The translations under genes were made by a program, and so were the position numbers. Positions 2,005 to 47,052 of a DNA stretch of 64,000 bases are shown piece by piece; position 1 is the stretch's first letter; every line of letters begins with the position of its first letter. The DNA comes from Candidatus Saccharimonadota bacterium. GTDB taxonomy: Bacteria > Patescibacteriota > Saccharimonadia > Saccharimonadales > JAQGHD01. The stretch is taken from assembly GCA_028288965.1 (NCBI GenBank), contig JAQGHD010000008.1, positions 22,390-86,389 of the forward strand, read 5' to 3'. The notes beneath the pieces are model-generated. The model was not told where the DNA came from and did not search any database. It worked only from the letters and a program-made list of their open reading frames with translations.

Positions 2005-2991
2005 ATGAGTCTAGCCTTTGAGGTCAAAAATCTAGCTAAACACTACGGCAATGTGAAAGCCCTAGACGGGGTGACGCTGGAGGCTAAAGAAGGCAGCATA
2101 TTTGGGCTGCTTGGCCCCAACGGTGCCGGTAAGACTACCCTAGTCCGAGCCCTCAGCACCTTGCTTGAACCAGATAAAGGCTCAGCCAAAGTGCTAGGCA
2201 TAGATGTTATCAAAAACCCGCAGCGAGTGCGTGAGGTCATTGGTTTGGCCGGACAATTTGCCGCAGTGGATGAGTATCTAACCGGTGAAGAAAATCTATA
2301 TATGGTGGGCCGGCTGTATCACCTGAGTGCGAAAGAAACCAAACAGCGCACCAAAGAATTGCTAGAGCGTTTGAACTTAGCTGACGCCGCCAAACGCCAG
2401 GTCCGCACCTATTCAGGCGGGATGCGCCGCCGCTTAGATCTCGGCGCTTGCCTGGTGGGCCGGCCCAAAATTTTATTTTTAGATGAGCCAACCACCGGCT
2501 TGGATCCGCGTACTCGCTTGGATTTATGGGAAATTATTCGTGATTTAGTGTCGCAGGGCACCAGCATTTTGCTCACCACTCAGTATCTGGAAGAAGCTGA
2601 CGTACTGGCCGATAAAATTGCTGTGATTGACCGGGGTAAGGTGATTGCCGAAGGTACATCGGCCAAACTAAAGGCGATGTTGGGTGGTGACGTTATTGAA
2701 ATCCAGCTGGAGAGCGAGCGCGATCGCCAAAAAGCCGAACAAGCCATAAAGGGCATCGCCAAAAAGGCTTCCAGCTACGATGAAGCCACCAAAACCCTAA
2801 CTATCCCTGTTGGTAGCGATGGCTCCAAGAGTTTAGCCGAAGTGGTGCGCAGCCTAGACAGAGCCAAGGTGCCAATTCATGCTCTGGCCTTGCACCAACC
2901 GTCCCTTGATGACGTGTTCTTAACGCTGACTGGTGCCAAAGCTTCCGAGGTAGCGACCGATGCCAAGCCTAAAAGAAAGCGAGCCGCCTGA
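2005..2991 (+). CDS. ABC transporter ATP-binding protein (DrrA/ABC-2 type)
   Basis: Walker A GPNGAGKTT, signature YSGGMRRRL, Walker B ILFLDEPTTGLD. Confidence 0.85.
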   Translation: MSLAFEVKNLAKHYGNVKALDGVTLEAKEGSIFGLLGPNGAGKTTLVRALSTLLEPDKGSAKVLGIDVIKNPQRVREVIGLAGQFAAVDEYLTGEENLYMVGRLYHLSAKETKQRTKELLERLNLADAAKRQVRTYSGGMRRRLDLGACLVGRPKILFLDEPTTGLDPRTRLDLWEIIRDLVSQGTSILLTTQYLEEADVLADKIAVIDRGKVIAEGTSAKLKAMLGGDVIEIQLESERDRQKAEQAIKGIAKKASSYDEATKTLTIPVGSDGSKSLAEVVRSLDRAKVPIHALALHQPSLDDVFLTLTGAKASEVATDAKPKRKRAA

Positions 2992-2992
2992 A

Positions 2993-3781
2993 ATGACTCT
3001 AACAAAAAAACTGAGCTATGAATTCAGCGACACCTGGGCAGTGGCCAAGCGTAATTTGCTGCGCTACACTCGCCTGCCGCAGCTGGTGTTTTTCTCAGCC
3101 ATTCAGCCGATTATTTTCTTAACACTGTTCAACTTTGTTTTTGGCGGGGCGCTGGGCAAATCCGGGGCGGCTCTGCATGGTAAGTACATCAATTACCTAC
3201 TGCCGGGCATTATGGTGCAGGTTACCCTGTTTGGCGGCCTGCAAACCGGCATAGGCTTGGCCCGTGATATTAACAGTGGCATACTGGACCGCTTCCGCAG
3301 CCTGCCGATGAGCCGCGCTGCCGTACTAGCCGGCCGCACTTTTGCCGATACGTTGCGCAATGTGGTGGTGATTGCCATTATGCTGGCCTATGGTTCAATC
3401 TTAGGTTTTCGCTTTACTAATGGCTTTTTCCCAGCCGTGGGCATGGTCTTAATCTTACTGTTGTTTGGCTACGCTTTTTCGTGGTTCTCGGCTTTTATTG
3501 GCATGGCTGTTAAGGATGAAGAAACGGCGCAGTTGGCGGGCTTTGTATTAGTCTTTCCACTGGTGTTTGCCAGTGCGGCTTTTGTACCGGTCCAAAGTAT
3601 GGCCACTTGGCTGCAGCACTTTGCTAATAATCAGCCGATTACGTTTGCTGCCAATGGAGCGCGTGAACTAGCTCTCGGTATTCCCAGTCATGGAGCGGTC
3701 TGGAAACTATTGGCCTGGGTGGTAGGCCTGCTGGTCGTGTTTGTGCCCCTGTCTATCTGGCGCTACAAAAAGAGCGTCTAA
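2993..3781 (+). CDS. ABC-2 type transporter permease
   Basis: Starts 2 nt after the ATPase stop. About 6 hydrophobic helices, DrrB-like layout. Confidence 0.75.
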   Translation: MTLTKKLSYEFSDTWAVAKRNLLRYTRLPQLVFFSAIQPIIFLTLFNFVFGGALGKSGAALHGKYINYLLPGIMVQVTLFGGLQTGIGLARDINSGILDRFRSLPMSRAAVLAGRTFADTLRNVVVIAIMLAYGSILGFRFTNGFFPAVGMVLILLLFGYAFSWFSAFIGMAVKDEETAQLAGFVLVFPLVFASAAFVPVQSMATWLQHFANNQPITFAANGARELALGIPSHGAVWKLLAWVVGLLVVFVPLSIWRYKKSV

Positions 3782-9624: not shown

Positions 9625-10482
9625 TTACAGATCTAGACTATGACTGGAGAGCTTGGCCTCAATTTTGTGGGTGGCTAAAGATTTGTTAAGTAATCTATAA
9701 AACTCGCTGCGCACTTTATATTGGTTGCTTGGCGAAGTTTGACCAATAATTTTGACCGTAATGCCATCATTGCTATACCCTTTGATACTGACTAGTTTAG
9801 GTGCCTGCTTAATTTTATGGGCCAGCTCTGGTTTGGCGGCTAACTCTTGGCCCACGTGATTAATAATGTGCTCTAGCTGCACAAGGTCGGTCTCGACCGG
9901 CACGGTCAGGTCTTCGTTTAGACTTGTGTAGCCGGAAGTTTTGTTGGTGGTGAGTTGGATAGTGCCATTCGGCACATGATGCACATACCCGTCCAGATCT
10001 CGGAGCACTGTGGTACGAATTGTAATAGACTCCACCACGCCACTGACGTTCCCAAGCTGGACAATGTCACCCACGCGGTATTGGTTCTCGGTAATTATAA
10101 AAATGCCGCTGACAAAATCTTTTATAAGACTCTGCGCGCCAAAACCTAGCGCCACTCCTAGAACGCCGGCACTGGCCAGCAGCGGGGCGGTGTTAATACC
10201 AAGTTCACCCACGATCATAATAGTAGCCACCAACCACACCACCACGCGTACCGTAGCGTTCACCAGACTACTCAGTGTCTTGATGCGTTTTTTGCGGTCC
10301 AGTTCGGTGGGGAACATGTCGCCCCGAATGGTTTGCCTGATAAGGCCATTAATAACCGTTGAGCCAAAGGTTCGCAGTACGTAGGCGCCCAGTACAATAA
10401 CGATCACATTAAATAAATGTTTATCGGCCCAATCGCTTAGTAAATGGCCTACATGTGTCAAGTTAGCGTCAAGCCCACCCAT
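9625..10482 (-). CDS. mscS: small-conductance mechanosensitive channel (MscS family)
   Basis: TM3/beta-domain block GALGFGAQSLIKDFVSGIFIITENQYRVGDIVQLGNVSGVVESITIRTTVLRDLDG..HHVPNG. Confidence 0.8.
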   Translation of the reverse strand: MGGLDANLTHVGHLLSDWADKHLFNVIVIVLGAYVLRTFGSTVINGLIRQTIRGDMFPTELDRKKRIKTLSSLVNATVRVVVWLVATIMIVGELGINTAPLLASAGVLGVALGFGAQSLIKDFVSGIFIITENQYRVGDIVQLGNVSGVVESITIRTTVLRDLDGYVHHVPNGTIQLTTNKTSGYTSLNEDLTVPVETDLVQLEHIINHVGQELAAKPELAHKIKQAPKLVSIKGYSNDGITVKIIGQTSPSNQYKVRSEFYRLLNKSLATHKIEAKLSSHSLDL

Positions 10483-10510
10483 AATTATTTTAAGTATACA
10501 GTACTGTGGC

Positions 10511-10975
10511 TTATTCGAACGGACGTGGTTTCACGATGGTTTCCAGAGGCCCCAGCGGTCGGTATTTCTGAGCAGACTTTTTGCCGTTTACGAAACTCCA
10601 TGGATGCGAATGGTAATTGGCTCTTTGCCGATCGTTGTAGTTTGCCGGGTCGCTGTAATCAATACCATATTTCTCGTCTGTCTTATGGCCAAAAGGGTAA
10701 AATTGCCTGGCTTGAGCTACGGCTTTATCAACTTCTGATTCCACTTCTTCTAGACGTTGTTTTTGTTCAGGTGTTAGCTCGCTGCCTAGGCCATGAAGCA
10801 GGTCGTCGTGCTGGCGCAAATACCGAATGACGCCATACACCCCTAAGCCACGTAGGTCACATACCTCATAGAGCGGATCTCCACCAAAGATATATTCATG
10901 AGTCGCGCCTTGGAGCTCCTCAATTTCAGCGTCGGTTTCAGTGTAAGTGTCGGCCATATAATCAGTATAAATCAA
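10511..10975 (-). CDS. hypothetical protein (154 aa)
   Basis: 4-nt overlap with the upstream phosphatase gene. No motif recognised. Confidence 0.45.
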   Translation of the reverse strand: MIYTDYMADTYTETDAEIEELQGATHEYIFGGDPLYEVCDLRGLGVYGVIRYLRQHDDLLHGLGSELTPEQKQRLEEVESEVDKAVAQARQFYPFGHKTDEKYGIDYSDPANYNDRQRANYHSHPWSFVNGKKSAQKYRPLGPLETIVKPRPFE

Positions 10976-11757
10976 TACAGCTTCTCGTTGTAGAGATCTA
11001 GAAGCAACTTACCTTCATTGTCACGACCGAGTTCTGGGTGACCACGGTAGATAGTCACACCACCGTTGATGGGTTTTTCTTCTTGGTCTAGTCTTTGGAA
11101 TTCGTCGGCACCCAATCGTTCAAGATTGGCACGGAGCGAGAGTTTGAGTAAGTGATGTGTCACCGCCAAAACATTTTGCTCGTGATAGTCGCGTGTGGTT
11201 GTTACTAGCCATGAACGATTTCGCTCACGCACATCAGGCACACTTTCTCCCTGTGGGTATCGGTACCAGTATGGTCCATTCTTGTCGTAGAGTTTTTCTT
11301 GTTCGGGATGTAGCACATGAAAAATGCGCCAGTCGTTGTAAAGGAGGGCCAGGCCGTGCTCTTGTTCGCGCAAGCGTTCTTCTTCCACGGTTTTAACAGC
11401 CCGCAACTCTGGCCATCCAATGGCCATGGCATCCAGTGTTTGGTTTGTTCTGTCATATGGTGAAACAAAAATCACATCTGGCAGCTTAATAAGCTTAGAC
11501 AAATTTTTGCCGGTCTTCCGTGATTGTTCTAGGCCACGCTCGGTTAAAGGCGTGTCATGGTCGCCACAGTTAAGTACCATGGTTTCATCATCTAAAAGGG
11601 CATGGGCTAAAGCTCTGGCTCGATCGGGATCTTGACGCCTATCTTCATAGGCTTCCAAGAACTCTTGATAGGTGGGGTTGGCTTGTTTGGCGGCTTTGAG
11701 TGCGTTATAGGCAGACTCGCCGTGTCTGACTACCGTGAGTGATTCCGGCCATTTCAT
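10972..11757 (-). CDS. histidine phosphatase superfamily protein (PGM-like)
   Basis: N-terminal catalytic motif LTVVRHGESAYN, later HG and VTHH. Confidence 0.7.
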   Translation of the reverse strand: MKWPESLTVVRHGESAYNALKAAKQANPTYQEFLEAYEDRRQDPDRARALAHALLDDETMVLNCGDHDTPLTERGLEQSRKTGKNLSKLIKLPDVIFVSPYDRTNQTLDAMAIGWPELRAVKTVEEERLREQEHGLALLYNDWRIFHVLHPEQEKLYDKNGPYWYRYPQGESVPDVRERNRSWLVTTTRDYHEQNVLAVTHHLLKLSLRANLERLGADEFQRLDQEEKPINGGVTIYRGHPELGRDNEGKLLLDLYNEKLY

Positions 11758-28558: not shown

Positions 28559-28584
28559 AAAAAAGACCTCCTTGTACAGAGGTC
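28559..28584 (-). terminator. intrinsic terminator following repeat copy E1
   Basis: Minus-strand GACCTC-tgtacaag-GAGGTC followed by TTTTTT. Confidence 0.55.
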
Positions 28585-28595
28585 AAACATCATGG

Positions 28596-28620
28596 TAGCC
28601 CAAATGCATTCGAGCTGGGA
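28596..28620 (-). repeat. island repeat copy E1 (core)
   Basis: Plus-strand tagcccaaatgcattcgagctggga. Matches the core consensus TAGCCCAARTACATTCGARYTGGAAC. Confidence 0.7.
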
Positions 28621-28811
28621 TCTAATCGGTACTGATTTAATTCGTCGCCAAAGAAAAAAGGCCCAAAACGATGAGAGCCATACTGTTAAAGTTTTTAGAA
28701 ACTTTCTTTTCAGAAGAACGACGAGCTACAAGCATTAACAATGCTAATAGGGATAGAGGGAACCACATTACGTCAATTATATACTCTTTGGGACCTAGTC
28801 TAATGGGTAGT

Positions 28812-28840
28812 AAAAAAAGAGCCGTCCCGATCGACGACTC
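28812..28840 (-). terminator. intrinsic terminator of gene 28893-29372
   Basis: Minus-strand GAGTCGTC-gatcgg-GACGGCTC followed by TTTTTTT. Confidence 0.6.
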
Positions 28841-28892
28841 TTTTGACCTCACTGTCTCTTACCTATTGCCAGTCTGGGGCAGAGTGCTCTAG

Positions 28893-29372
28893 TTAGTTCC
28901 CCTGTCTGTGGCCGGAACCACCAGAGACGTAACGCAGGTAGTCAGTGGGTATATTATTGTCCTTGGCCCACGTTGCCAATTCGGTTTGCCTGGTCTGCAT
29001 GGCGGCCTGGCGTTCGGCAGCTGACTTAGTCTGCGCGGCACCACGGTTAGCTGCACGTTGCGTCTTTAGCTCAGCTCGCTTGGCCAGAATCTTTGACTTC
29101 TGGTCGGCCGTTAGTTTGCCGTCTGTCACAGCTTTACTCAGATCGGTTTCGGCCTGGGCATCCATAGCGGCTTGGTGATCGGTTCGGTTCTGATCAAAGA
29201 CGGCTTTGACGTCGTTCTTATTCAGGTTGAACTTGGCAGCAATCTTATCGACTAAACTGCTTGATCCGCCAGTAGTGCTGCTGGCAGCCGAGACGCTGGC
29301 GGCTCCCGCCAGTGATGCCAGGGCGACGGCGGAAGTTACTCCGACAATAAGTAATGGTTTTCTAATCTTCAT
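28893..29372 (-). CDS. secreted helical protein (159 aa)
   Basis: Signal peptide LLIVGVTSAVALASLAGAASVSAAS. RBS AAGGAGAA. Confidence 0.5.
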   Translation of the reverse strand: MKIRKPLLIVGVTSAVALASLAGAASVSAASSTTGGSSSLVDKIAAKFNLNKNDVKAVFDQNRTDHQAAMDAQAETDLSKAVTDGKLTADQKSKILAKRAELKTQRAANRGAAQTKSAAERQAAMQTRQTELATWAKDNNIPTDYLRYVSGGSGHRQGN

Positions 29373-29508
29373 AATTTCTCCTTGTTTAACGTAAATATTA
29401 GTTGCGCGCTGGTAGCTACCTATAGCAACCGATCTACCTTAACCCACTGATATGAGAATTATCTGAAGACACCAAAACAAATGTTTGCAATGGGGGTTAG
29501 TGCTAGAA

Positions 29509-29529
29509 AGCCCAAGTACATTCGAACTG
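29509..29529 (-). repeat. island repeat copy E2 (core, most degenerate)
   Basis: agcccaagtacattcgaactg, immediately after the stop of gene 29542-30210. Confidence 0.6.
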
Positions 29530-29541
29530 CAGTCTCATCAG

Positions 29542-30210
29542 TTAAGACTGTAGTGCCGCATATGAATCAACCCACTTCTTATCGTGTGTAGGGTTTGAGT
29601 CATATACAGCAAACTCAACAGTAGGATACTTTACTTCTATCTGTTCAGCTAAAGCTGCATGAAACTTTTCGATAGTTTGGCAAAACTCATCTGAAGTGGA
29701 TTCATAATGTCGTAAGGTGGCAAAGAGTAGACCCTCACGTCTCTTATTATCAGTAGTTGAAATTAATAATGGGTTACCTCGCCACTTTAATATCTTCCAG
29801 CCGTGGGTTGTTGGTAGGTCGGGTAGCGTAAAGTGGCTTTCAAAGTAACTTCCCGGCCTTCGTGCATCACTGGCTGATTTTGGTGCTAGTGGATGCCATG
29901 GGGTTGTTTCAATCTTTTCCCGCACTACTTCTATGCCGGCAGATCTCAGACCTGAGGCGATTCGTCCTAGCTCGACCAGCGATTCGGCGCTTGTACATTC
30001 ATAATCCGAGCCAGTTAAGTAGTCAGGCACACTTTCGCTCTGGGGTGTTTCGTTATAAATAATGTGAGCCTTTACACCTAGCTGACCACACACTTCACGA
30101 AACAGCTGCGGATCAGTTGTGATAGGGTCAGCCGTTACATGTAGTTCGTGTGGGCCAAAAAAATCTCTAACACCTGCTTCTAATATAAAACTTCCATTTT
30201 GCTCACTCAT
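29542..30210 (-). CDS. hypothetical protein, possible 2H phosphoesterase fold
   Basis: Two H-x-T-x motifs (HELHVTAD and ESHFTLPD) about 110 aa apart. Start taken at MSEQNG (30210), because the extension to 30288 would run into a repeat/terminator. Confidence 0.4.
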   Translation of the reverse strand: MSEQNGSFILEAGVRDFFGPHELHVTADPITTDPQLFREVCGQLGVKAHIIYNETPQSESVPDYLTGSDYECTSAESLVELGRIASGLRSAGIEVVREKIETTPWHPLAPKSASDARRPGSYFESHFTLPDLPTTHGWKILKWRGNPLLISTTDNKRREGLLFATLRHYESTSDEFCQTIEKFHAALAEQIEVKYPTVEFAVYDSNPTHDKKWVDSYAALQS

Positions 30211-30303
30211 AATATTTATTATAGACGTGCCTAAAATAAGCGTGCAAGCATGAGCAAAATAAAAATGACCTCCAACTACGAAGGCCATAGTACTTATGCT
30301 TGA

Positions 30304-30362
30304 TAGCCCAAGTACATTCGGATTGGAACTCTATCTTTGCTGAATCAAGTAGATGGAGAGCT
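30304..30362 (-). repeat. island repeat copy E3 (core plus 5' extension)
   Basis: tagcccaagtacattcggattggaac plus ...agatggagagct. Begins 1 nt after the pilin stop at 30364. Confidence 0.7.
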
Positions 30363-30363
30363 A

Positions 30364-30981
30364 TTATTGTTTAATGTTATTGAGTACAGTCCTAATGTTT
30401 GCAAGGGTTTGTGTCTCTTGAGCGTCACCATTAGATTTTGCTGAACAGCTTGCTCCTGGTTCGGCTGGAGCAATGTAATAGTAATCACCTATTAGTGCGG
30501 GTTTGATATTATGAACCGTTTTATCACTAGACGTCATTACCGAGTCATATATTTCTTTGAATGTGGATGTTTCAGTGCCGGGCGCAGGATAAGTATCGGT
30601 AGCTTTGCCTCTTGCCACTTGTACTGAATTCGTTGTGCATGATGGCAAGAGGGTATCTAACTGCTTTGTTCTAAAAGAGGCAACGCTATTATTTAGAGTG
30701 TAGTAGAGGTCTGTCGTATTAGCATCCAAGGGTACTTGAACACCCCATTCTTTAACTGTCAGTGATTTTTGAGTAGTGGTCATAGATTGAGGGGAAGAGG
30801 ATGTCGGCGTTTTAGTGACTTTTTGAGGGGTACTTGCTCCTTGAGAAGTGTTATTGAGGGTTTTGTTGGTATCTTTCTGAGATTTATAGACATACCACCC
30901 AACAAAACCAATCACCCCAACGATTATTAGAATGAGTAAGGCTTCGACTGCCGAAAAGCCTTTACTATTTAACTTTTTCAT
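30364..30981 (-). CDS. type IV pilin-like protein (prepilin N-terminus)
   Basis: MKKLNSKG|FSAVEALLILIIVGVIGFVGWYVY: class III signal with G|F cleavage site and Glu+5. Confidence 0.75.
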   Translation of the reverse strand: MKKLNSKGFSAVEALLILIIVGVIGFVGWYVYKSQKDTNKTLNNTSQGASTPQKVTKTPTSSSPQSMTTTQKSLTVKEWGVQVPLDANTTDLYYTLNNSVASFRTKQLDTLLPSCTTNSVQVARGKATDTYPAPGTETSTFKEIYDSVMTSSDKTVHNIKPALIGDYYYIAPAEPGASCSAKSNGDAQETQTLANIRTVLNNIKQ

Positions 30982-31005
30982 AAAGATTCCTTGATTATTA
31001 GCTTA

Positions 31006-31034
31006 AGCATAATTGAAGCCTGATAACTTTGCAA
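31006..31034 (-). promoter_or_regulatory. pilin promoter (TTGCAA-N17-TATGCT)
   Basis: Minus-strand TTGCAA (31034-31029), 17-nt spacer, TATGCT (31011-31006), followed by the conserved TAAGC. Confidence 0.55.
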
Positions 31035-31056
31035 TTTGACCAAGTGATAGTGGAAC

Positions 31057-31743
31057 CTAGTTGATTGTTAGTGAGTCAAAAGCTTTAGTAAATGTTGTCC
31101 AATAATCTGCAGCGGCCTTAACATTTAGTTCTTCATTTACACTCCCGAATGAATAGGTTTTGTTGCCAATGGCAAATAGATACAGCTTTGAGTCTATGCC
31201 AGAGTTGGTGACAGCATACTGGGTTGATGATTTGCCCTTCAGTTTATTAGTTGTTTTGGTGACCTTATTCAGAGAAGATTGAGCATAATAACCATCATAA
31301 AACGATGTTGCTGTGGCCAGCTTTTCATCCAGGACCTCCACAACCACTGTATTGCTATATTTAGCACCACCTACAAGTTTCAGGCCTGTGCCAAATTGTT
31401 GCCTTGTTGCGCTACCGTTAGTCTCTGCTGCACTGCTTGAGACTTCGTCACTGGTTGTCCAGGTCGTTGGATATTTATAACTAAAGCCATACGTAGAGTT
31501 TGTGTACGTTTTCCAGCCGGCATACACGTCGACAGCTGGTGTTGTGGCTGCTGGTTTAGTAGCGGCACTTGGCTTGGTTGTTGTCGCATTTTGGTTATTT
31601 GCGACATTGTTGTATGAAGTATTGGTTTTGTTTCTTGATTGATATACATACCAGCCCACAAAACCAATGACCCCAACAGTTGTCGCGATTAATAAGCCTT
31701 CGACAGCACTAAAACCCGTTTGATTTTTGTTTAATTTGTCCAT
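31057..31743 (-). CDS. type IV pilin-like protein
   Basis: MDKLNKNQTG|FSAVEGLLIATTVGVIGFVGWYVY. The C-domain is paralogous to 23878-24651. Confidence 0.75.
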   Translation of the reverse strand: MDKLNKNQTGFSAVEGLLIATTVGVIGFVGWYVYQSRNKTNTSYNNVANNQNATTTKPSAATKPAATTPAVDVYAGWKTYTNSTYGFSYKYPTTWTTSDEVSSSAAETNGSATRQQFGTGLKLVGGAKYSNTVVVEVLDEKLATATSFYDGYYAQSSLNKVTKTTNKLKGKSSTQYAVTNSGIDSKLYLFAIGNKTYSFGSVNEELNVKAAADYWTTFTKAFDSLTIN

Positions 31744-31777
31744 TCTGAACGATTCCTTAGATTAAGTAATTATTTTA

Positions 31778-31806
31778 AGCATAAGCGTGGCTAGAGTAAA
31801 TTGCAA
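31778..31806 (-). promoter_or_regulatory. pilin promoter (TTGCAA-N17-TATGCT)
   Basis: Minus-strand TTGCAA (31806-31801), 17-nt spacer, TATGCT (31783-31778). Confidence 0.55.
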
Positions 31807-31833
31807 TAAAAATGACCTCCGGTGAAGGAGGTC
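31807..31833 (-). terminator. intrinsic terminator following repeat copy E4
   Basis: Minus-strand GACCTCC-ttcacc-GGAGGTC followed by ATTTTTA, abutting the -35 of the next promoter. Confidence 0.65.
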
Positions 31834-31845
31834 AAATATGCTTGA

Positions 31846-31918
31846 TAGCCCTGGTACATTCGAACTGGAACGTACTTCCTGGGGAGCTATCTCGTTGGCT
31901 AGAAATATCTAGAGGCAA
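31846..31918 (-). repeat. island repeat copy E4 (core plus 5' extension)
   Basis: tagccctggtacattcgaactggaac ... tctagaggcaa. The extension contains hairpin CTAGA-tatt-TCTAG (minus sense). Confidence 0.7.
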
Positions 31919-31955
31919 GTCAAAAGTAAGCTACTCTACCGGGCGGTAGTGGAAC

Positions 31956-32648
31956 CTAAATTACCTTAACTGTCTTAACAACTTGCTCGATTGTATCACT
32001 GACATTTTCTGCGCCAGACTGTACGGTGTAGCCAAATGTTAGTCTTGAGGCGCCTAATTGCACGCAGTACCCGTAAAACTTATCTCCCTTGACAAGACTT
32101 TGAGCGCCTGTATTAGTAGCAACATCACCGGATTCGACATCTGTATACACATCATTTCCACTGTCAGTTTTAAGAGCTAGTTTGTAGGCTGGTAACTCTG
32201 AACATTTGCCTGTATTTGATGAAGCGGCACCGTAGTCCATAAAGAAGCCGTATGTAAATTCACCCGGACCCGAATACGTTGAGTATTCTTTAACAACTGC
32301 CTTCTGACCAGCTTTGTACTTTATGTCGTCATTCTTGGCAAAAAAGCTATCATTGCTTTCCTGCTTTTTAGTAATCGTCCAGCCGTCAGCAAATCGAATT
32401 GAATAGTGAGGGGCCTTGTATTCCAGCCAACTATCAGACACTTTCTTTTCTGGTGCAGCCGTTTTGGTCTCGCTCTTTTTTGTCGATGTTTGAGAACTGA
32501 TTGTTGATTGTGATGCGTTGCTAAGGCTTTTGTTTGCGTCCTTATTTGATTTATATACATACCAGCCCACAAAACCAATTATGCCCACTATGACTAGGAT
32601 TAATAGCCCCTCAACTGCCGAGAAGCCCCTAGAATTTAACTTTTTCAT
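31956..32648 (-). CDS. type IV pilin-like protein
   Basis: MKKLNSRG|FSAVEGLLILVIVGIIGFVGWYVY. Confidence 0.75.
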   Translation of the reverse strand: MKKLNSRGFSAVEGLLILVIVGIIGFVGWYVYKSNKDANKSLSNASQSTISSQTSTKKSETKTAAPEKKVSDSWLEYKAPHYSIRFADGWTITKKQESNDSFFAKNDDIKYKAGQKAVVKEYSTYSGPGEFTYGFFMDYGAASSNTGKCSELPAYKLALKTDSGNDVYTDVESGDVATNTGAQSLVKGDKFYGYCVQLGASRLTFGYTVQSGAENVSDTIEQVVKTVKVI

Positions 32649-32671
32649 TTAAGTTCCTTTAAGTTAGCTTA

Positions 32672-32700
32672 AGCATAAGCGAAAAATAATCCCAAAGCAA
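32672..32700 (-). promoter_or_regulatory. pilin promoter (TTGCTT-N17-TATGCT)
   Basis: Minus-strand TTGCTT (32700-32695), 17-nt spacer, TATGCT (32677-32672). Confidence 0.5.
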
Positions 32701-32701
32701 T

Positions 32702-32727
32702 AAAAAAGACCCCTTGCAAAAGAGGTT
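32702..32727 (-). terminator. intrinsic terminator following repeat copy E5
   Basis: Minus-strand ACCTCTT-ttgc-AAGGGGT followed by CTTTTTTA. Confidence 0.6.
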
Positions 32728-32739
32728 GAATAGACTTGG

Positions 32740-32817
32740 TAGCCCAAATACATTCGAATTGGAACTTAATGCTTGCGGAGTTAAGCCGCTGGATGCAATC
32801 ATCTGGAGAGGCAACAG
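32740..32817 (-). repeat. island repeat copy E5 (full length, ~78 nt)
   Basis: Aligns over its full length with E6. Contains hairpin GATG-attg-CATC (minus sense) and the core ending GGGCTACCAAG. Confidence 0.75.
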
Positions 32818-32970
32818 TGTAGTCTTTATTCTTCCAATGTAATCGGTATGGCACTACTTTTTTCTTGTTGACACTGTAGTACATGACCACCGGTACTTCT
32901 TTGTTGATTTTCTCTCGTATAAAATTACTCCTTGTTGACTAACTTACAAACTTAGAATTTAATATGCCTT

Positions 32971-33309
32971 ATGGATATATTGAAACCTATGCAAGAACTT
33001 GAGGCACATTCTGCTCACATTGGAGCCATAGCTGATGCTGTTATTGCTGAAATAAATGCTGCTAGCAAAGATGAGCTACAAGCTCAAGTCGATGCGGTAC
33101 CTAATATAGGCAATGCGGCAAGTCACTTGGTTGATTACTACGCAGACGGTCTAGAGCCATTAAGCGATGAAGAACAGGGGCTCTGGAAAGATGCATTTAT
33201 GATTGGTTTACTTACTCGGCATTTATTATCTACAGAAGAAGTTCCAGTTCCCCCACCTGTACTAGGTTCGCCCCCTGAGCTACCTGACTTTTACGGTGAA
33301 GTCAACTAG
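32971..33309 (+). CDS. hypothetical acidic protein (112 aa)
   Basis: The only plus-strand ORF in the island; bracketed by repeat copies E5 and E6. Confidence 0.4.
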   Translation: MDILKPMQELEAHSAHIGAIADAVIAEINAASKDELQAQVDAVPNIGNAASHLVDYYADGLEPLSDEEQGLWKDAFMIGLLTRHLLSTEEVPVPPPVLGSPPELPDFYGEVN

Positions 33310-33374
33310 TATTCAGCCCACTTTACAGATTGATGTACATTGAAAAAGACTCCGAAGAGCCCTCTAAATCTTTG

Positions 33375-33451
33375 TAGCCCAAGTACATTCGAGTTGGAAC
33401 CTACTCTCGGCGGAGTTAAATCGCTGGATGCAATCATCTAGAGAGGCAACA
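33375..33451 (-). repeat. island repeat copy E6 (full length, ~77 nt)
   Basis: tagcccaagtacattcgagttggaac...ggatgcaatcatctagagaggcaaca. Lies ~45 nt after the stop of pilin 33494-34138. Confidence 0.75.
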
Positions 33452-33493
33452 GCGCTTTATTGCATGTGTTTCGCAGGACGTAATATTAATTAT

Positions 33494-34138
33494 CTATAAA
33501 GCCACAAAGCTGCTTGTGAGTGCTCCTACTGCATCCTTAGTTTGTTTCACAAGTGCCGACGAAGAACAATCAGATTGACCACTCCAGTAAATGTAATAGT
33601 AGTTGCCAACCTTTGAGTAGCTAGGGGGTGTGCTATTGCCAGCTTTGAAGTCCTGGCTAAGAAAAGCTTGAGCTGTTACTTCACCTCCTTCAGCAGGGAT
33701 TTTATCTGTTGGCAAGTAGCGTCCAATGTAGCCCCCACCAGCGTTTTGGGTATCTGACGCACCACTTCTCCCGATTCCGCAATAAGGGTCACTTACCGCT
33801 GTAAGCTGCGTTGAGGTAAAGTACGCATTGTTGGTTGGGTATGGTTTTGTGCCAATGGCATATCGAAGTGTCAAAGTTCCATCATATGGTGCTTTTACTC
33901 CCCATTCTTTTACCTCAAAATACTTAGTTGTTGGTTTTGCGGCAGTCTCAGATGCTGCCGAAGTTGATTTCTTTGTGGTACTTGCAGCTTGGTTTGTCGC
34001 AGCTGCGTTGTTGTAGCTGGTTGTTGTCTTTTTATTACTATTCCAAACATACCAGCCGATAAAACCAATGACGCTGACAATAACCAAAATTAATAAGCCT
34101 TCAACTGCGCTGAAGCCTTTTTGATTTATTTTTTTCAT
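33494..34138 (-). CDS. type IV pilin-like protein
   Basis: MKKINQKG|FSAVEGLLILVIVSVIGFIGWYVW. Start at 34138, because the predicted -10 (34169-34164) lies inside the longer ORF. Confidence 0.75.
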   Translation of the reverse strand: MKKINQKGFSAVEGLLILVIVSVIGFIGWYVWNSNKKTTTSYNNAAATNQAASTTKKSTSAASETAAKPTTKYFEVKEWGVKAPYDGTLTLRYAIGTKPYPTNNAYFTSTQLTAVSDPYCGIGRSGASDTQNAGGGYIGRYLPTDKIPAEGGEVTAQAFLSQDFKAGNSTPPSYSKVGNYYYIYWSGQSDCSSSALVKQTKDAVGALTSSFVAL

Positions 34139-34163
34139 AGAATCCTTGCTTAAATTTAGCTTA

Positions 34164-34192
34164 AGCATAATAGATGTTTAGTCGGGTTGCAA
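34164..34192 (-). promoter_or_regulatory. pilin promoter (TTGCAA-N17-TATGCT)
   Basis: Minus-strand TTGCAA (34192-34187), 17-nt spacer, TATGCT (34169-34164). Confidence 0.55.
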
Positions 34193-34292
34193 TTCGACCA
34201 AGAAAGTCCAGAACCTAATTAACAAAGGTGGTTGGCTTAAGGAAATAAATAGAGACTGGTTTTGGAACCAATCTCTATCTGTCATTCATTCT

Positions 34293-34367
34293 TGGTAGCG
34301 GGGGCGGGACTCGAACCCGCGACCTTGTGGTTATGAGCCACACGAGCTGCCACTGCTCTACCCCGCG
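34293..34367 (-). tRNA. tRNA-Met (CAU), initiator type
   Basis: 75 nt: CGCGGGG-TA-GAGC..GCTC-G-TGTGG-CTCATAA-CCACA-AGGTC-GCGGG-TTCGAGT-CCCGC-CCCCGCT-A-CCA. Position 1:72 is unpaired (C1/U72), as in bacterial initiators. Closely resembles E. coli tRNA-fMet as I recall it. CCA is encoded. Confidence 0.8.
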
Positions 34368-34978: not shown

Positions 34979-35054
34979 GGGGGCGTAGCTCATCGGTTAG
35001 AGCAGGCGGCTCATAACCGCTTGGTAGATGGTTAGATTCCATCCTCCCCCACCA
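34979..35054 (+). tRNA. tRNA with CAU anticodon, probably tRNA-Ile2 (lysidine-modified)
   Basis: 76-nt cloverleaf GGGGGCG..GGCGG-CTCATAA-CCGCT-TGGTA-GATGG-TTAGATT-CCATC-CTCCCCC-A-CCA. The GAGCAGGCGGCTCATAACCGCTTGGT segment resembles E. coli ileX as I recall it. Identity (Ile2 versus Met) is tentative. Confidence 0.7.
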
Positions 35055-41080: not shown

Positions 41081-41157
41081 GGCAGGGTAGCTCAGTTGGT
41101 TAGAGCACAGGACTCATAAGCCTGGGGTCGCGAGTTCAAATCTCGCCCCTGCTACCA
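41081..41157 (+). tRNA. tRNA-Met (CAU), elongator type
   Basis: 77 nt: GGCAGGG-TA-GCTCAGTTGGTTAGAGC-A-CAGGA-CTCATAA-GCCTG-GGGTC-GCGAG-TTCAAAT-CTCGC-CCCTGCT-A-CCA. The D-arm and variable loop match E. coli elongator tRNA-Met as I recall it. Confidence 0.8.
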
Positions 41158-46740: not shown

Positions 46741-47052
46741 ATGAGGAAAAACCAAGCCGGGTTCAGTGTTGTAGAAGGACTACTGGTGCTGATTATTATT
46801 GCCATTATTGGGTTTATTGGTTGGTATGTACTTAAGGCCAAAAACAAAACCACCACGAGTTATAACAATACCAATTCCAGCACATCTGCCGTAGCCTCTA
46901 AAGCTACCTCGTCGAGCGCTACAGATAACACAAGTTTGGATAAAGATTTATCAGATGCCAACGGCAGCCTAACCCAGGGCAACCAGAACCTGAGTTCGGC
47001 AGATGCGTCCCTAAACGATCAGAGCCGTCAAGTAACGGTACCAACGGAGTAA
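46741..47052 (+). CDS. short type IV pilin-like protein
   Basis: MRKNQAG|FSVVEGLLVLIIIAIIGFIGWYV followed by an S/T/N-rich tail. Confidence 0.7.
   Translation: MRKNQAGFSVVEGLLVLIIIAIIGFIGWYVLKAKNKTTTSYNNTNSSTSAVASKATSSSATDNTSLDKDLSDANGSLTQGNQNLSSADASLNDQSRQVTVPTE

Follow-up and report, generated by a model that had tools for sequence, protein, structure and literature searches.

Within a 64,000-nt stretch of Candidatus Saccharimonadota DNA (assembly GCA_028288965.1, contig JAQGHD010000008.1, positions 22,390 to 86,389; this whole stretch is referred to as the window), six copies of a conserved repeat, named E1 to E6, lie in one orientation 3' of an initiator-type tRNA-Met gene. Comparative sequence analysis makes it very probable that the cores of these copies are half-sites of a large serine recombinase (LSR) that targets the tRNA-Met gene, and that they bound an array of gene cassettes. 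Little has been described of the mobile elements and gene-exchange routes of Saccharibacteria, which are epibionts of very small size and reduced genome, and literature searches gave no account of this locus.

The 29-nt core of the repeat family is GTTCCAATTCGAATGTACnnGGGCTACCA. An initial annotation of the window had listed six co-oriented copies, and our searches bore this out: using its degenerate 26-mer and the shorter sequence YCGAATGYAYYWGGGCT as search patterns, and shuffled sequences as a chance control, we found five sites for the 26-mer at zero to three mismatches (none expected, 100 shuffles), and exact matches to YCGAATGYAYYWGGGCT at all six copies (0.31 expected), all on the minus strand. 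Mismatches to the 26-mer numbered none in E5 and E6, one in E3, two in E4 and three in E1. The genes among the copies are four pilin-like open reading frames (ORFs) with KGFSAVEGLLI.. N-termini and three ORFs without a Pfam family. The array is anchored at the tRNA-Met 3' end (GGTTCGAGTCCCGCCCCCG-CT-ACCAAG), which would be the left half-site on the host side (attB-type). The annotation had also pointed to a 9-mer, GCTACCAAG, that E5 has in common with the tRNA end; the match is real, but it is weak evidence by itself, since the window has three further occurrences of the 9-mer, one in another tRNA-Met (41151) and two in coding sequence (54344 and 55094).

To look beyond the window, the exact core pattern was used to scan genomes, one per species, and a looser pattern to scan metagenomes. 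The core was present in 18 species genomes, 16 of which are titled Saccharibacteria, Saccharimonas or Saccharimonadales and the remaining two 'Candidatus Paceibacterota bacterium' and 'bacterium', and all 18 have a single locus; the looser pattern identified 54 metagenome contigs. Loci L001-L072 were picked by the core pattern, L073-L079 were fetched via the recombinase protein and are thus unbiased for the core, and diverged cores are known only within loci already fetched. The only tRNA type found in any core locus is tRNA-Met, and every contig that includes a 75-nt initiator-type tRNA-Met (about 24 loci and the window) has its cores 0.3-6.5 kb downstream of that gene, on the same strand as the gene. 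The annotation had reasoned that a lack of copies outside this island would indicate simple duplication scars; what we found is the opposite, as the repeat is present across species and always in an equivalent tRNA-linked island. The genes upstream of the cores in other genomes (enzymes, transporters and others) are unrelated to pilins.

An alignment of 110 distinct core copies from about 80 loci shows that 23 of the 29 positions are kept in at least 90% of the copies, across many species and within unrelated flanking sequence, the main exceptions being positions 19-20. This bears on the explanation that the copies are inert scars, i.e. functionless, decayed duplicates of the tRNA-Met gene or of its 3' end that are alike through recent common descent. 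It has some appeal: the long form of the repeat is loosely colinear with the tRNA, with GGTAGAG, TAACCAC, TTCGA and GCTACCA in the same order, the tRNA-distal copies E1 and E2 are the most degraded, and a loose search found numerous degraded core copies inside the islands. However, the identity between core and tRNA-Met is confined to the 7-9 nt of GCTACCA(AG), and the level of conservation argues for selection or for very frequent renewal by a sequence-specific process. Inert scars may account for dead relics among the copies in the window, not for the whole family, for which we consider this explanation very unlikely. Of the three possibilities raised in the annotation, att-type duplications left at the tRNA by serial integrations came closest to our reading, except that the copies are not duplicates of the tRNA 3' end.

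The recombinase that accompanies the repeat is a protein of about 525 amino acids with Resolvase and Recombinase domains (Pfam), present in L013 and L066 and as a partial third copy in L044. It is the only recombinase among the recurrent island proteins, its catalytic domain matches the TP901-1 integrase, and it has 298 relatives at E<1e-20, some of them named Saccharibacteria recombinases, for which the precomputed domains are PF00239, PF07508 and PF13408. Pfam scans of about 165 island proteins revealed no recurrent tyrosine integrase, although not all singletons were inspected. In all nine loci with a complete LSR gene (L013, L066 and L073-L079), this gene points toward the tRNA-Met 3' end and directly adjoins it. 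Seven of the nine have an inserted segment that ends 3-10 kb away in at least one core on the tRNA strand (L013, 6.5 kb; L066, 3.3 kb; L073, 10 kb; L075, L076, L077 and L079); L074 and L078 have no core within 10 kb.

The LSR reading frame itself crosses the trailer hairpin and the crossover region into the opposite-strand tRNA gene, where it ends with ..LVAGAGLEPATLWL* (L013:628-2220, minus strand; L066:1981-3561, plus strand; L073-L079 around 10001-11600), so that insertion or excision would alter the C-terminus of the LSR. We also considered coding conservation as a reason for the invariance of the core and rejected it, because the variation is not of a synonymous type, even though the LSR frame reads over the site on the other strand. 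Small conserved ORFs lie directly upstream of the LSR gene (L073:9515-10004, L074:9514-9964, L076:9513-9963 and L077:9071-9963), of about 100 and 51-66 amino acids in L073, L074 and L076, with an extra ORF of 127 amino acids between them in L077; they may encode regulators or a directionality factor.

Serine integrases need identity between their two sites only at the central dinucleotide. Base 72 of the initiator-type tRNA-Met is unpaired and varies by species, being T, A or G, and we compared it with its counterpart in the cores of that locus: 34 pairs are T/T, five A/A and one G/G, none is discordant, and L079 (A/A) was read by eye. The protein-derived loci include T/T (L073), G/G (L075) and A/A (L076, L077 and L079). 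As the tRNA base 72 equals the core base in every locus, the crossover would be at or beside C-N of G-CN-ACCA, and the crossover dinucleotide is most likely C-N, N being tRNA base 72. The distance from GGTTC to C-N is 19 nt in the tRNA and 24 nt in the core. An outer-domain (DBD2/zinc-ribbon) motif that lies 5 bp closer to the centre in attB than in attP is the accepted basis of the discrimination between these sites (PMC11722253). The 5-bp offset of GGTTC thus appears as expected for attB-type and attP-type half-sites, on the assumption that GGTTC is the bound motif.

The junctions fit the same scheme. The tRNA followed by a trailer of type D (see below) and the LSR gene can be read as attL, a core followed by another trailer as attR, and the core itself as the element-side left half-site. 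In seven attP sites reconstructed from a core and a type D trailer, the dyad score at C-N is 9.7 of 24 positions, compared with a typical 4-7 elsewhere, and it is the highest among the centres at which tRNA and core agree; the inner inverted repeat of the reconstructed attP is TACTTGG-GCNA-CCAAGTA. A hybrid site was observed at L076:2869-2899 (minus strand), where the left part of a core is joined to tRNA-type inner sequence (GTTCCAATTCGAATGTAC-CCCCGCAACCA), followed by a long hairpin and the structured unit described below; it may be the product of an exchange at a different position.

The edges of the cassettes, determined by pairwise BLAST between loci, provide a further line of evidence. 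Loci with multiple copies have one or two genes per core, and the same gene families, among them short-chain dehydrogenases, serine hydrolases, aldo-keto reductases, PsbP-like and pilin-like proteins, recur beside different neighbours. Cassettes that loci have in common (88-99% identity) end one or two positions past the ACCA of their own core (L050/L056, 98.9% over 1097 nt; L040/L050, 98.3% over 1090 nt; also L035/L040 and L010/L071), and they start at -6 relative to the ACCA of the left-hand partner. One such cassette (93% over 895 nt) adjoins a core on its left in L002 and the tRNA itself in L051; another adjoins a core in L010 and, in L071, a tRNA-like 3' end. All these boundaries thus lie in a stretch of 6-8 nt that every partner contains, which is what site-specific exchange would give.

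The sequences behind the cores and the tRNA, which we call trailers, are also exchanged. Four types (A, B, C and D), each with a hairpin terminator, occur behind tRNA genes, behind cores and behind a structured unit of about 170 nt; types A and D resemble each other with a 2-nt shift. Homologues of the type B trailer, which follows the tRNA in the window, are found behind cores in L007, L010, L011, L023, L026 and others. The loci with a complete LSR gene have the recombinase-side trailer behind the tRNA, and the other loci have other trailers. The annotation had described a hairpin with a T-run closely downstream of most copies, and our terminator scan agrees, flagging those of E1, E3, E4 and E5 (28584-28565, 30288-30265, 31834-31813 and 32726-32709, read on the minus strand), while that of E6 is weaker and was not flagged and E2 has none. 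The cores lie directly upstream of terminators because the trailers that are swapped carry intrinsic terminators.

Cassettes could also be swapped without a site-specific recombinase, the cores and the tRNA serving as short arms of homology for RecA-dependent exchange of transformed DNA. Saccharibacteria have been reported to be naturally competent, and a Competence-family protein is encoded in L079. Three further observations suit this explanation: related genomes carry reshuffled cassettes, an intact recombinase is missing from the vicinity of most arrays, and conservation reaches about 60 nt upstream of the crossover, more than a half-site would span. On the other hand, the breakpoints lie in the same 6-8 nt (CTACCA..) and are not scattered over the 29-90 nt of homology; the left partner may be the tRNA end, which has only 7-9 nt in common with the core, as L002 and L051 show; the base-72 match and the 5-bp shift of GGTTC are peculiar to sites of serine recombinases; and an intact recombinase lies exactly at the junction in nine loci. 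We therefore regard exchange through portable homology as unlikely. The suggestion in the annotation that the repeat is a recombination scaffold is upheld insofar as cassettes are bounded by and exchanged at the repeat; the exchange appears to be site-specific and not a gene conversion of the Neisseria type, and the cargo extends beyond pilins.

Under our proposal of LSR half-sites, each core (GTTCCAATTCGAATGTACnnGGG-CT-ACCA) would be the attP-type 'P arm', i.e. the element-side left half-site of the LSR family of about 525 amino acids, whose members would target the 3' end of the initiator-type tRNA-Met gene in Saccharibacteria for DNA insertion. Strand exchange would take place within G-CT-ACCA(AG), the sequence common to the tRNA end and the core. 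The inserted segment would start right behind ...ACCA and finish with its own core, and this new core would become joined to the trailer formerly behind the tRNA or behind another core. Successive events would then generate an array of one- or two-gene cassettes 3' of the tRNA. The order of these insertion events is inferred, and cassettes that lack a recombinase may move in trans.

An RNA-level function is very hard to reconcile with the data. The annotation had proposed, as one possibility, that the repeat is a tRNA-like 3'-UTR or small-RNA motif ending in ..GCUACCA that stabilizes or processes the upstream mRNAs. The copies are indeed co-oriented with the upstream genes and lie 5-15 nt ahead of intrinsic terminators, the core holds UUCGAAU and ends in ACCA, and the trailers interchange with the tRNA's own trailer, as RNAs matured like tRNAs might. 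Nevertheless, RNAalifold gave -0.44 kcal/mol for the 110 copies, with four pairs and no compensatory ones, and explicit pair counting likewise detected no covariation. The supposed T-arm-like stem TCCAA/TTGGG changes on its 3' side only; it has 51 broken cells in the two inner pairs (55 over the five pairs) and one double change, which does not exceed shuffles. In GTAC-nn-GGGCT, nn (positions 19-20) may be TT, TA, AT, AA, CT, GT, CA or GA, while the supposed partner CCAA is fixed. The 5' extension starting TTGCCTCT is present in E4-E6, as had been noted; its hairpins, however, are not equivalent, because their alignment registers differ: that of E5 and E6 pairs columns 26-29 with 34-37, and that of E4 columns 23-27 with 32-36. 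Over the copies, the 5' hairpin is paired in 46% of the cells, again not above shuffles, and inspection of the variable 5' part for helices by eye, together with a mutual-information scan, gave nothing beyond the split between long and short forms.

No match on the element was found in Rfam, either at the gathering thresholds or at E<=10, nor did ARAGORN call a tRNA or tmRNA on it. When the core is read as a canonical tRNA 3' end, counting back from CCA, the T-stem positions do not pair, and the features of a T-arm/acceptor mimic (a stem closing a 7-nt T-loop, an acceptor helix, covariation) were not seen in the core copies. The same procedure does detect covariation in the neighbouring unit of about 170 nt of related loci, which yielded -28.3 kcal/mol and compensatory changes in 14 of 28 pairs. 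Moreover, an RNA element would leave the restriction to one tRNA-linked locus per genome, the association with a recombinase and the base-72 match unaccounted for. On our reading the repeat acts in DNA, as a site of recombination, rather than as an RNA.

The structured unit used as this positive control, about 150-190 nt long, lies outside the window (L001:4596-4771, plus; L033:2503-2646, plus; L032:1669-1843, minus; L050:2385-2556 and 2917-3089, plus; L056:183-351, plus; also in L045, L068, L003, L035, L048 and others). It is preceded by a long covarying hairpin (ACCAAGAAAAA..TTTTTCTTGGT) right behind the tRNA-Met or a core, and it ends with a copy of the last ~20 nt of the resident tRNA, its T-stem base agreeing with the tRNA of the same locus. 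Its G-T pairs point to the tRNA strand, and Rfam has no match for it. The unit is a candidate for a new RNA or for a second insertion type; neither ARAGORN nor Rfam supports reading it as a group I intron or as a tmRNA, permuted or in two pieces.

Several observations weigh against our reading of the cores as LSR half-sites. Firstly, insertion in canonical systems turns attB into an inert attL, and repeated entry beside the tRNA would therefore fall outside the textbook mechanism; equivalent right-hand half-sites, trans movement of recombinase-less cassettes or a contribution of homologous recombination are possibilities that could allow it. Secondly, most core loci, including that of the window, have no intact recombinase in the DNA available, searches of viral contigs with the core and with the LSR gave no matches, an excised circular form was not found and recombination was not seen directly. 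Thirdly, the dyad symmetry is modest, and a rival centre, GG, 2 nt away, scores 9.3 and was dropped only because the tRNA differs there. In addition, conservation reaches about 60-120 nt upstream of the crossover, exceeding a normal half-site; a semi-conserved stretch is seen 30-60 nt upstream of it. Finally, the invariance of the core and the T/T concordances in L001-L072 are partly built in, as this set was chosen by the core pattern.

It is instructive to compare the array with known systems. Judged by its defining features, the repeat appears to fit a serine-integrase attachment half-site. As in the att systems of Bxb1, phiC31, TP901-1, SPbeta and the Listeria phages LI/A118, a gene for a protein of ~525 amino acids with Resolvase and Recombinase domains (and a zinc ribbon) adjoins one of the junctions, half-sites measure only about 24 bp, the central dinucleotide matches between the partners and may lie within an imperfect dyad, attB-type and attP-type sites differ by 5 bp in the position of their outer motif, and the host gene stays intact. 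Unlike in those systems, the target here is a tRNA 3' end, the partners share 7-9 bp and not only 2, many tandem copies lack a recombinase, and genomes contain all four combinations of left and right half-sites, with products that do not seem inert.

The closest analogues are the staphylococcal cassette chromosome (SCC) arrays and tRNA-linked islands. In staphylococci, the serine recombinases CcrAB or CcrC insert SCC at the 3' end of rlmH/orfX, and there are composite cassettes as well as cassettes without ccr, the latter being thought to have moved in trans. Common to both are a large serine recombinase, a conserved housekeeping gene whose 3' end is the target, tandem cassettes with short direct integration repeats between them, many recombinase-less cassettes and accessory cargo, including surface and resistance genes. 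They differ in phylum, in the target, which is a tRNA here and a protein gene there, in the single recombinase here versus the ccrA/ccrB pair, and in the cassettes, which are much smaller here (0.6-1.9 kb) and mostly consist of a single gene that brings along a promoter-like region and a terminator. The islands of Prochlorococcus tycheposons, a minority of which use large serine recombinases, carry repeats that are partial tRNA copies of about 40 nt, and most of their integrases are tyrosine recombinases (10.1101/2020.12.28.424599). Such islands grow from a tRNA gene, later insertions displacing earlier ones outward, and degenerate recombinases and repeated att remnants are dispersed in them; the arrays described here would share these features. 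The repeat here differs in being an element-side half-site with only GCTACCA in common with the tRNA, and a partial-tRNA att repeat of a tyrosine-integrase island was rejected because the identity with the tRNA is just 7-9 nt and the Pfam scans of about 165 island proteins gave no recurrent tyrosine integrase.

By functional analogy, the array also recalls integrons (IntI/attI/attC) in having one anchor site, cassettes of mostly one gene in a single orientation, a site just past the stop codon and varying cassette orders. In integrons, however, the recombinase is of the tyrosine type, the attC sites act as folded single strands, being imperfect palindromes (R''-L''/L'-R') kept by structure and not by sequence, and cassettes usually lack promoters. 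The site here is instead kept by sequence and lacks a fold, it goes with a serine recombinase, and terminators and promoter-like sequences are part of the cassettes. We therefore rejected an attC site; the core, moreover, starts with GTTCCAA and not GTTRRRY. The Neisseria Sma/Cla repeat is likewise conserved and located 3' of pilin genes in a multi-pilin locus, but there gene conversion at pilE is RecA-dependent and draws on silent truncated pilS copies, while here the pilin-like genes are complete and a site-specific mechanism is indicated. A Neisseria-type pilin repeat was dropped because the core follows unrelated genes in other loci and the pilin-like genes of the window are full length, with N-terminal signal motifs present. 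The confinement to one locus per genome and the association with a serine recombinase led us to discard dif/Xer sites, DNA uptake sequences, targets of diversity-generating retroelements and IS200/IS605 ends.

An insertion hotspot with a 29-nt site and a cognate LSR family would account for strain-level variation in pilin-like and accessory genes, which is relevant to host attachment. The site would serve as a simple marker of accessory cargo in metagenomes, and the LSR with its natural tRNA target would supply a tool for site-specific integration in a genetically hard group. A bolder extension, which is conceivable although we lean somewhat against it, is that the phylum possesses an integron-like, serine-recombinase-driven capture platform docking at the initiator tRNA 3' end, in which cassettes are inserted, excised and reshuffled, those without an LSR in trans, the product sites stay competent, and the main route for exchanging surface genes (type IV pilin-like) is thereby provided. 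A cassette of such a platform may consist of a trailer with terminator, a promoter, one gene and the 29-nt core. If product sites do stay active, this would be an unusual case for directionality control by serine integrases.

The features of the array in the window are listed below, from the tRNA outward; for each, the source of the assignment is given in brackets.

34293-34367, minus strand: initiator-type tRNA-Met(CAT) (ARAGORN; Rfam tRNA at 64 bits, with a non-standard 1-72 pair)
34247-34292, minus strand: type B trailer with intrinsic terminator, directly 3' of tRNA-Met (terminator scan, stem 34280-34247)
34185-34217, minus strand: core-less 5' module (TAGGTTCTGGAC..TTGGTCGAATTGCAA) preceding pilin-like gene 1 (sequence; resembles a partial tRNA)
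33494-34168, minus strand: pilin-like gene 1, N-terminal KGFSAVEGLLILVIV (ORF list and prepilin-type motif scan; no above-threshold Pfam match)
33372-33462, minus strand: E6, consisting of the core at 33372-33400 (GTTCCAACTCGAATGTACTTGGGCTACAA) and a 5' extension (pattern searches)
33310-33371, minus strand: decayed type D trailer, a putative element-side right half-site (P'), with the last ~30 nt of the LSR frame, the LSR remnant (..FSPLYR) being encoded on the plus strand (alignment)
32971-33309, plus strand: ORF of 112 amino acids within the second cassette (ORF list; no Pfam family)
32737-32827, minus strand: E5, consisting of the core at 32737-32765 and a 5' extension, with no same-strand gene directly upstream (pattern searches)
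32709-32726, minus strand: terminator hairpin of the E5 trailer (terminator scan)
31956-32648, minus strand: pilin-like gene 2 (ORF list and prepilin-type motif scan)
31843-31958, minus strand: E4, long form, with the 5' module (TAGGTTCCACTACCGCCCGGTAGAGTAGC) from the TAG stop codon of the gene and the core at its end, 31843-31871 (sequence)
31813-31834, minus strand: terminator hairpin, type A trailer of E4 (terminator scan)
31057-31743, minus strand: pilin-like gene 3 (ORF list and prepilin-type motif scan)
31025-31059, minus strand: core-less 5' module (TAGGTTCCACTATCACTTGGTCAAATTGCAA) separating pilin-like genes 3 and 4 (sequence)
30364-30981, minus strand: pilin-like gene 4 (ORF list and prepilin-type motif scan)
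30301-30363, minus strand: E3, short form, core at 30301-30329 (pattern searches)
30265-30288, minus strand: terminator hairpin, type A trailer of E3 (terminator scan)
29542-30288, minus strand: ORF of at most 248 amino acids (ORF list; no Pfam family)
29506-29534 (29509), minus strand: E2, decayed and truncated to its 3' part (core ..CAGTTCGAATGTACTTGGGCTTTCT), without a trailer hairpin (sequence)
28893-29372, minus strand: secreted-looking ORF of 159 amino acids with its own terminator (ORF list and sequence)
28593-28621, minus strand: E1, the outermost copy as seen from the tRNA, which along with E2 has diverged most (GATCCCAGCTCGAATGCATTTGGGCTACCA) (pattern searches)
28565-28584, minus strand: terminator hairpin, type A trailer of E1, end of the array (terminator scan)

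The window would thus contain about six cassettes, with four pilin-like genes and one dead LSR remnant. Starting from the tRNA and its type B trailer, the order is pilin-like gene 1 with E6; the type D trailer with the LSR remnant, followed by the 112-amino-acid ORF with E5; pilin-like gene 2 with E4; pilin-like genes 3 and 4 with E3; the 248-amino-acid ORF with the truncated E2; and the 159-amino-acid ORF with E1 and the last trailer. The trailer of E6 aligns with the trailers behind the tRNA that lie beside intact LSR genes in L013, L073 and L076-L079, the homology ending after ..GTGGGCTGAAT; judged from this alignment, the E6 core and the type D trailer form an attP-like junction, the rest of the LSR gene being deleted. 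The greater decay of the two tRNA-distal copies, E2 and E1, fits growth of the array from the tRNA end, although it does not prove it. The annotation had placed the -35 element of the next pilin promoter right behind these terminators; this could not be confirmed, our scan showing a single promoter-like match, at 31800-31772.

Apart from the core, a 5' module, TAGGTTC[T/C/G].. (TAGGTTCKAGTCC..GGTAGAGTAAG), occurs on the minus strand at 31930-31958, 34185-34217 and 31025-31059, and provides stops in three frames. It can be likened to a tRNA T-loop (GGTTCGAGTCC) followed by GGTAGAG as in the 5' part of the tRNA. The module sits at the stop codons of cargo genes, and core-less examples occur between genes and behind trailers; related motifs, CCTCTGTTAnnTAGGTTCGAGTCC, are found behind trailers in L001, L003, L007, L008, L010, L011 and L016.

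Three tRNA-Met(CAT) genes lie within 7 kb in the window (34293-34367, minus; 34979-35054, plus; 41081-41157, plus), and this trio recurs around the island elsewhere. In L053:5017-5800 (plus strand), and with the same sequence on the minus strand in L067, an initiator-type tRNA-Met is interrupted in its anticodon loop by ~700 nt (GGCTCA, the inserted sequence, then ATAACCACG); the split gene looks intron-like, and ARAGORN makes no call on it. Beyond the island, a short pilin-like ORF (MRKNQAGFSVVEGLLVLIII..) is located at 46741-47052 on the plus strand of the window.

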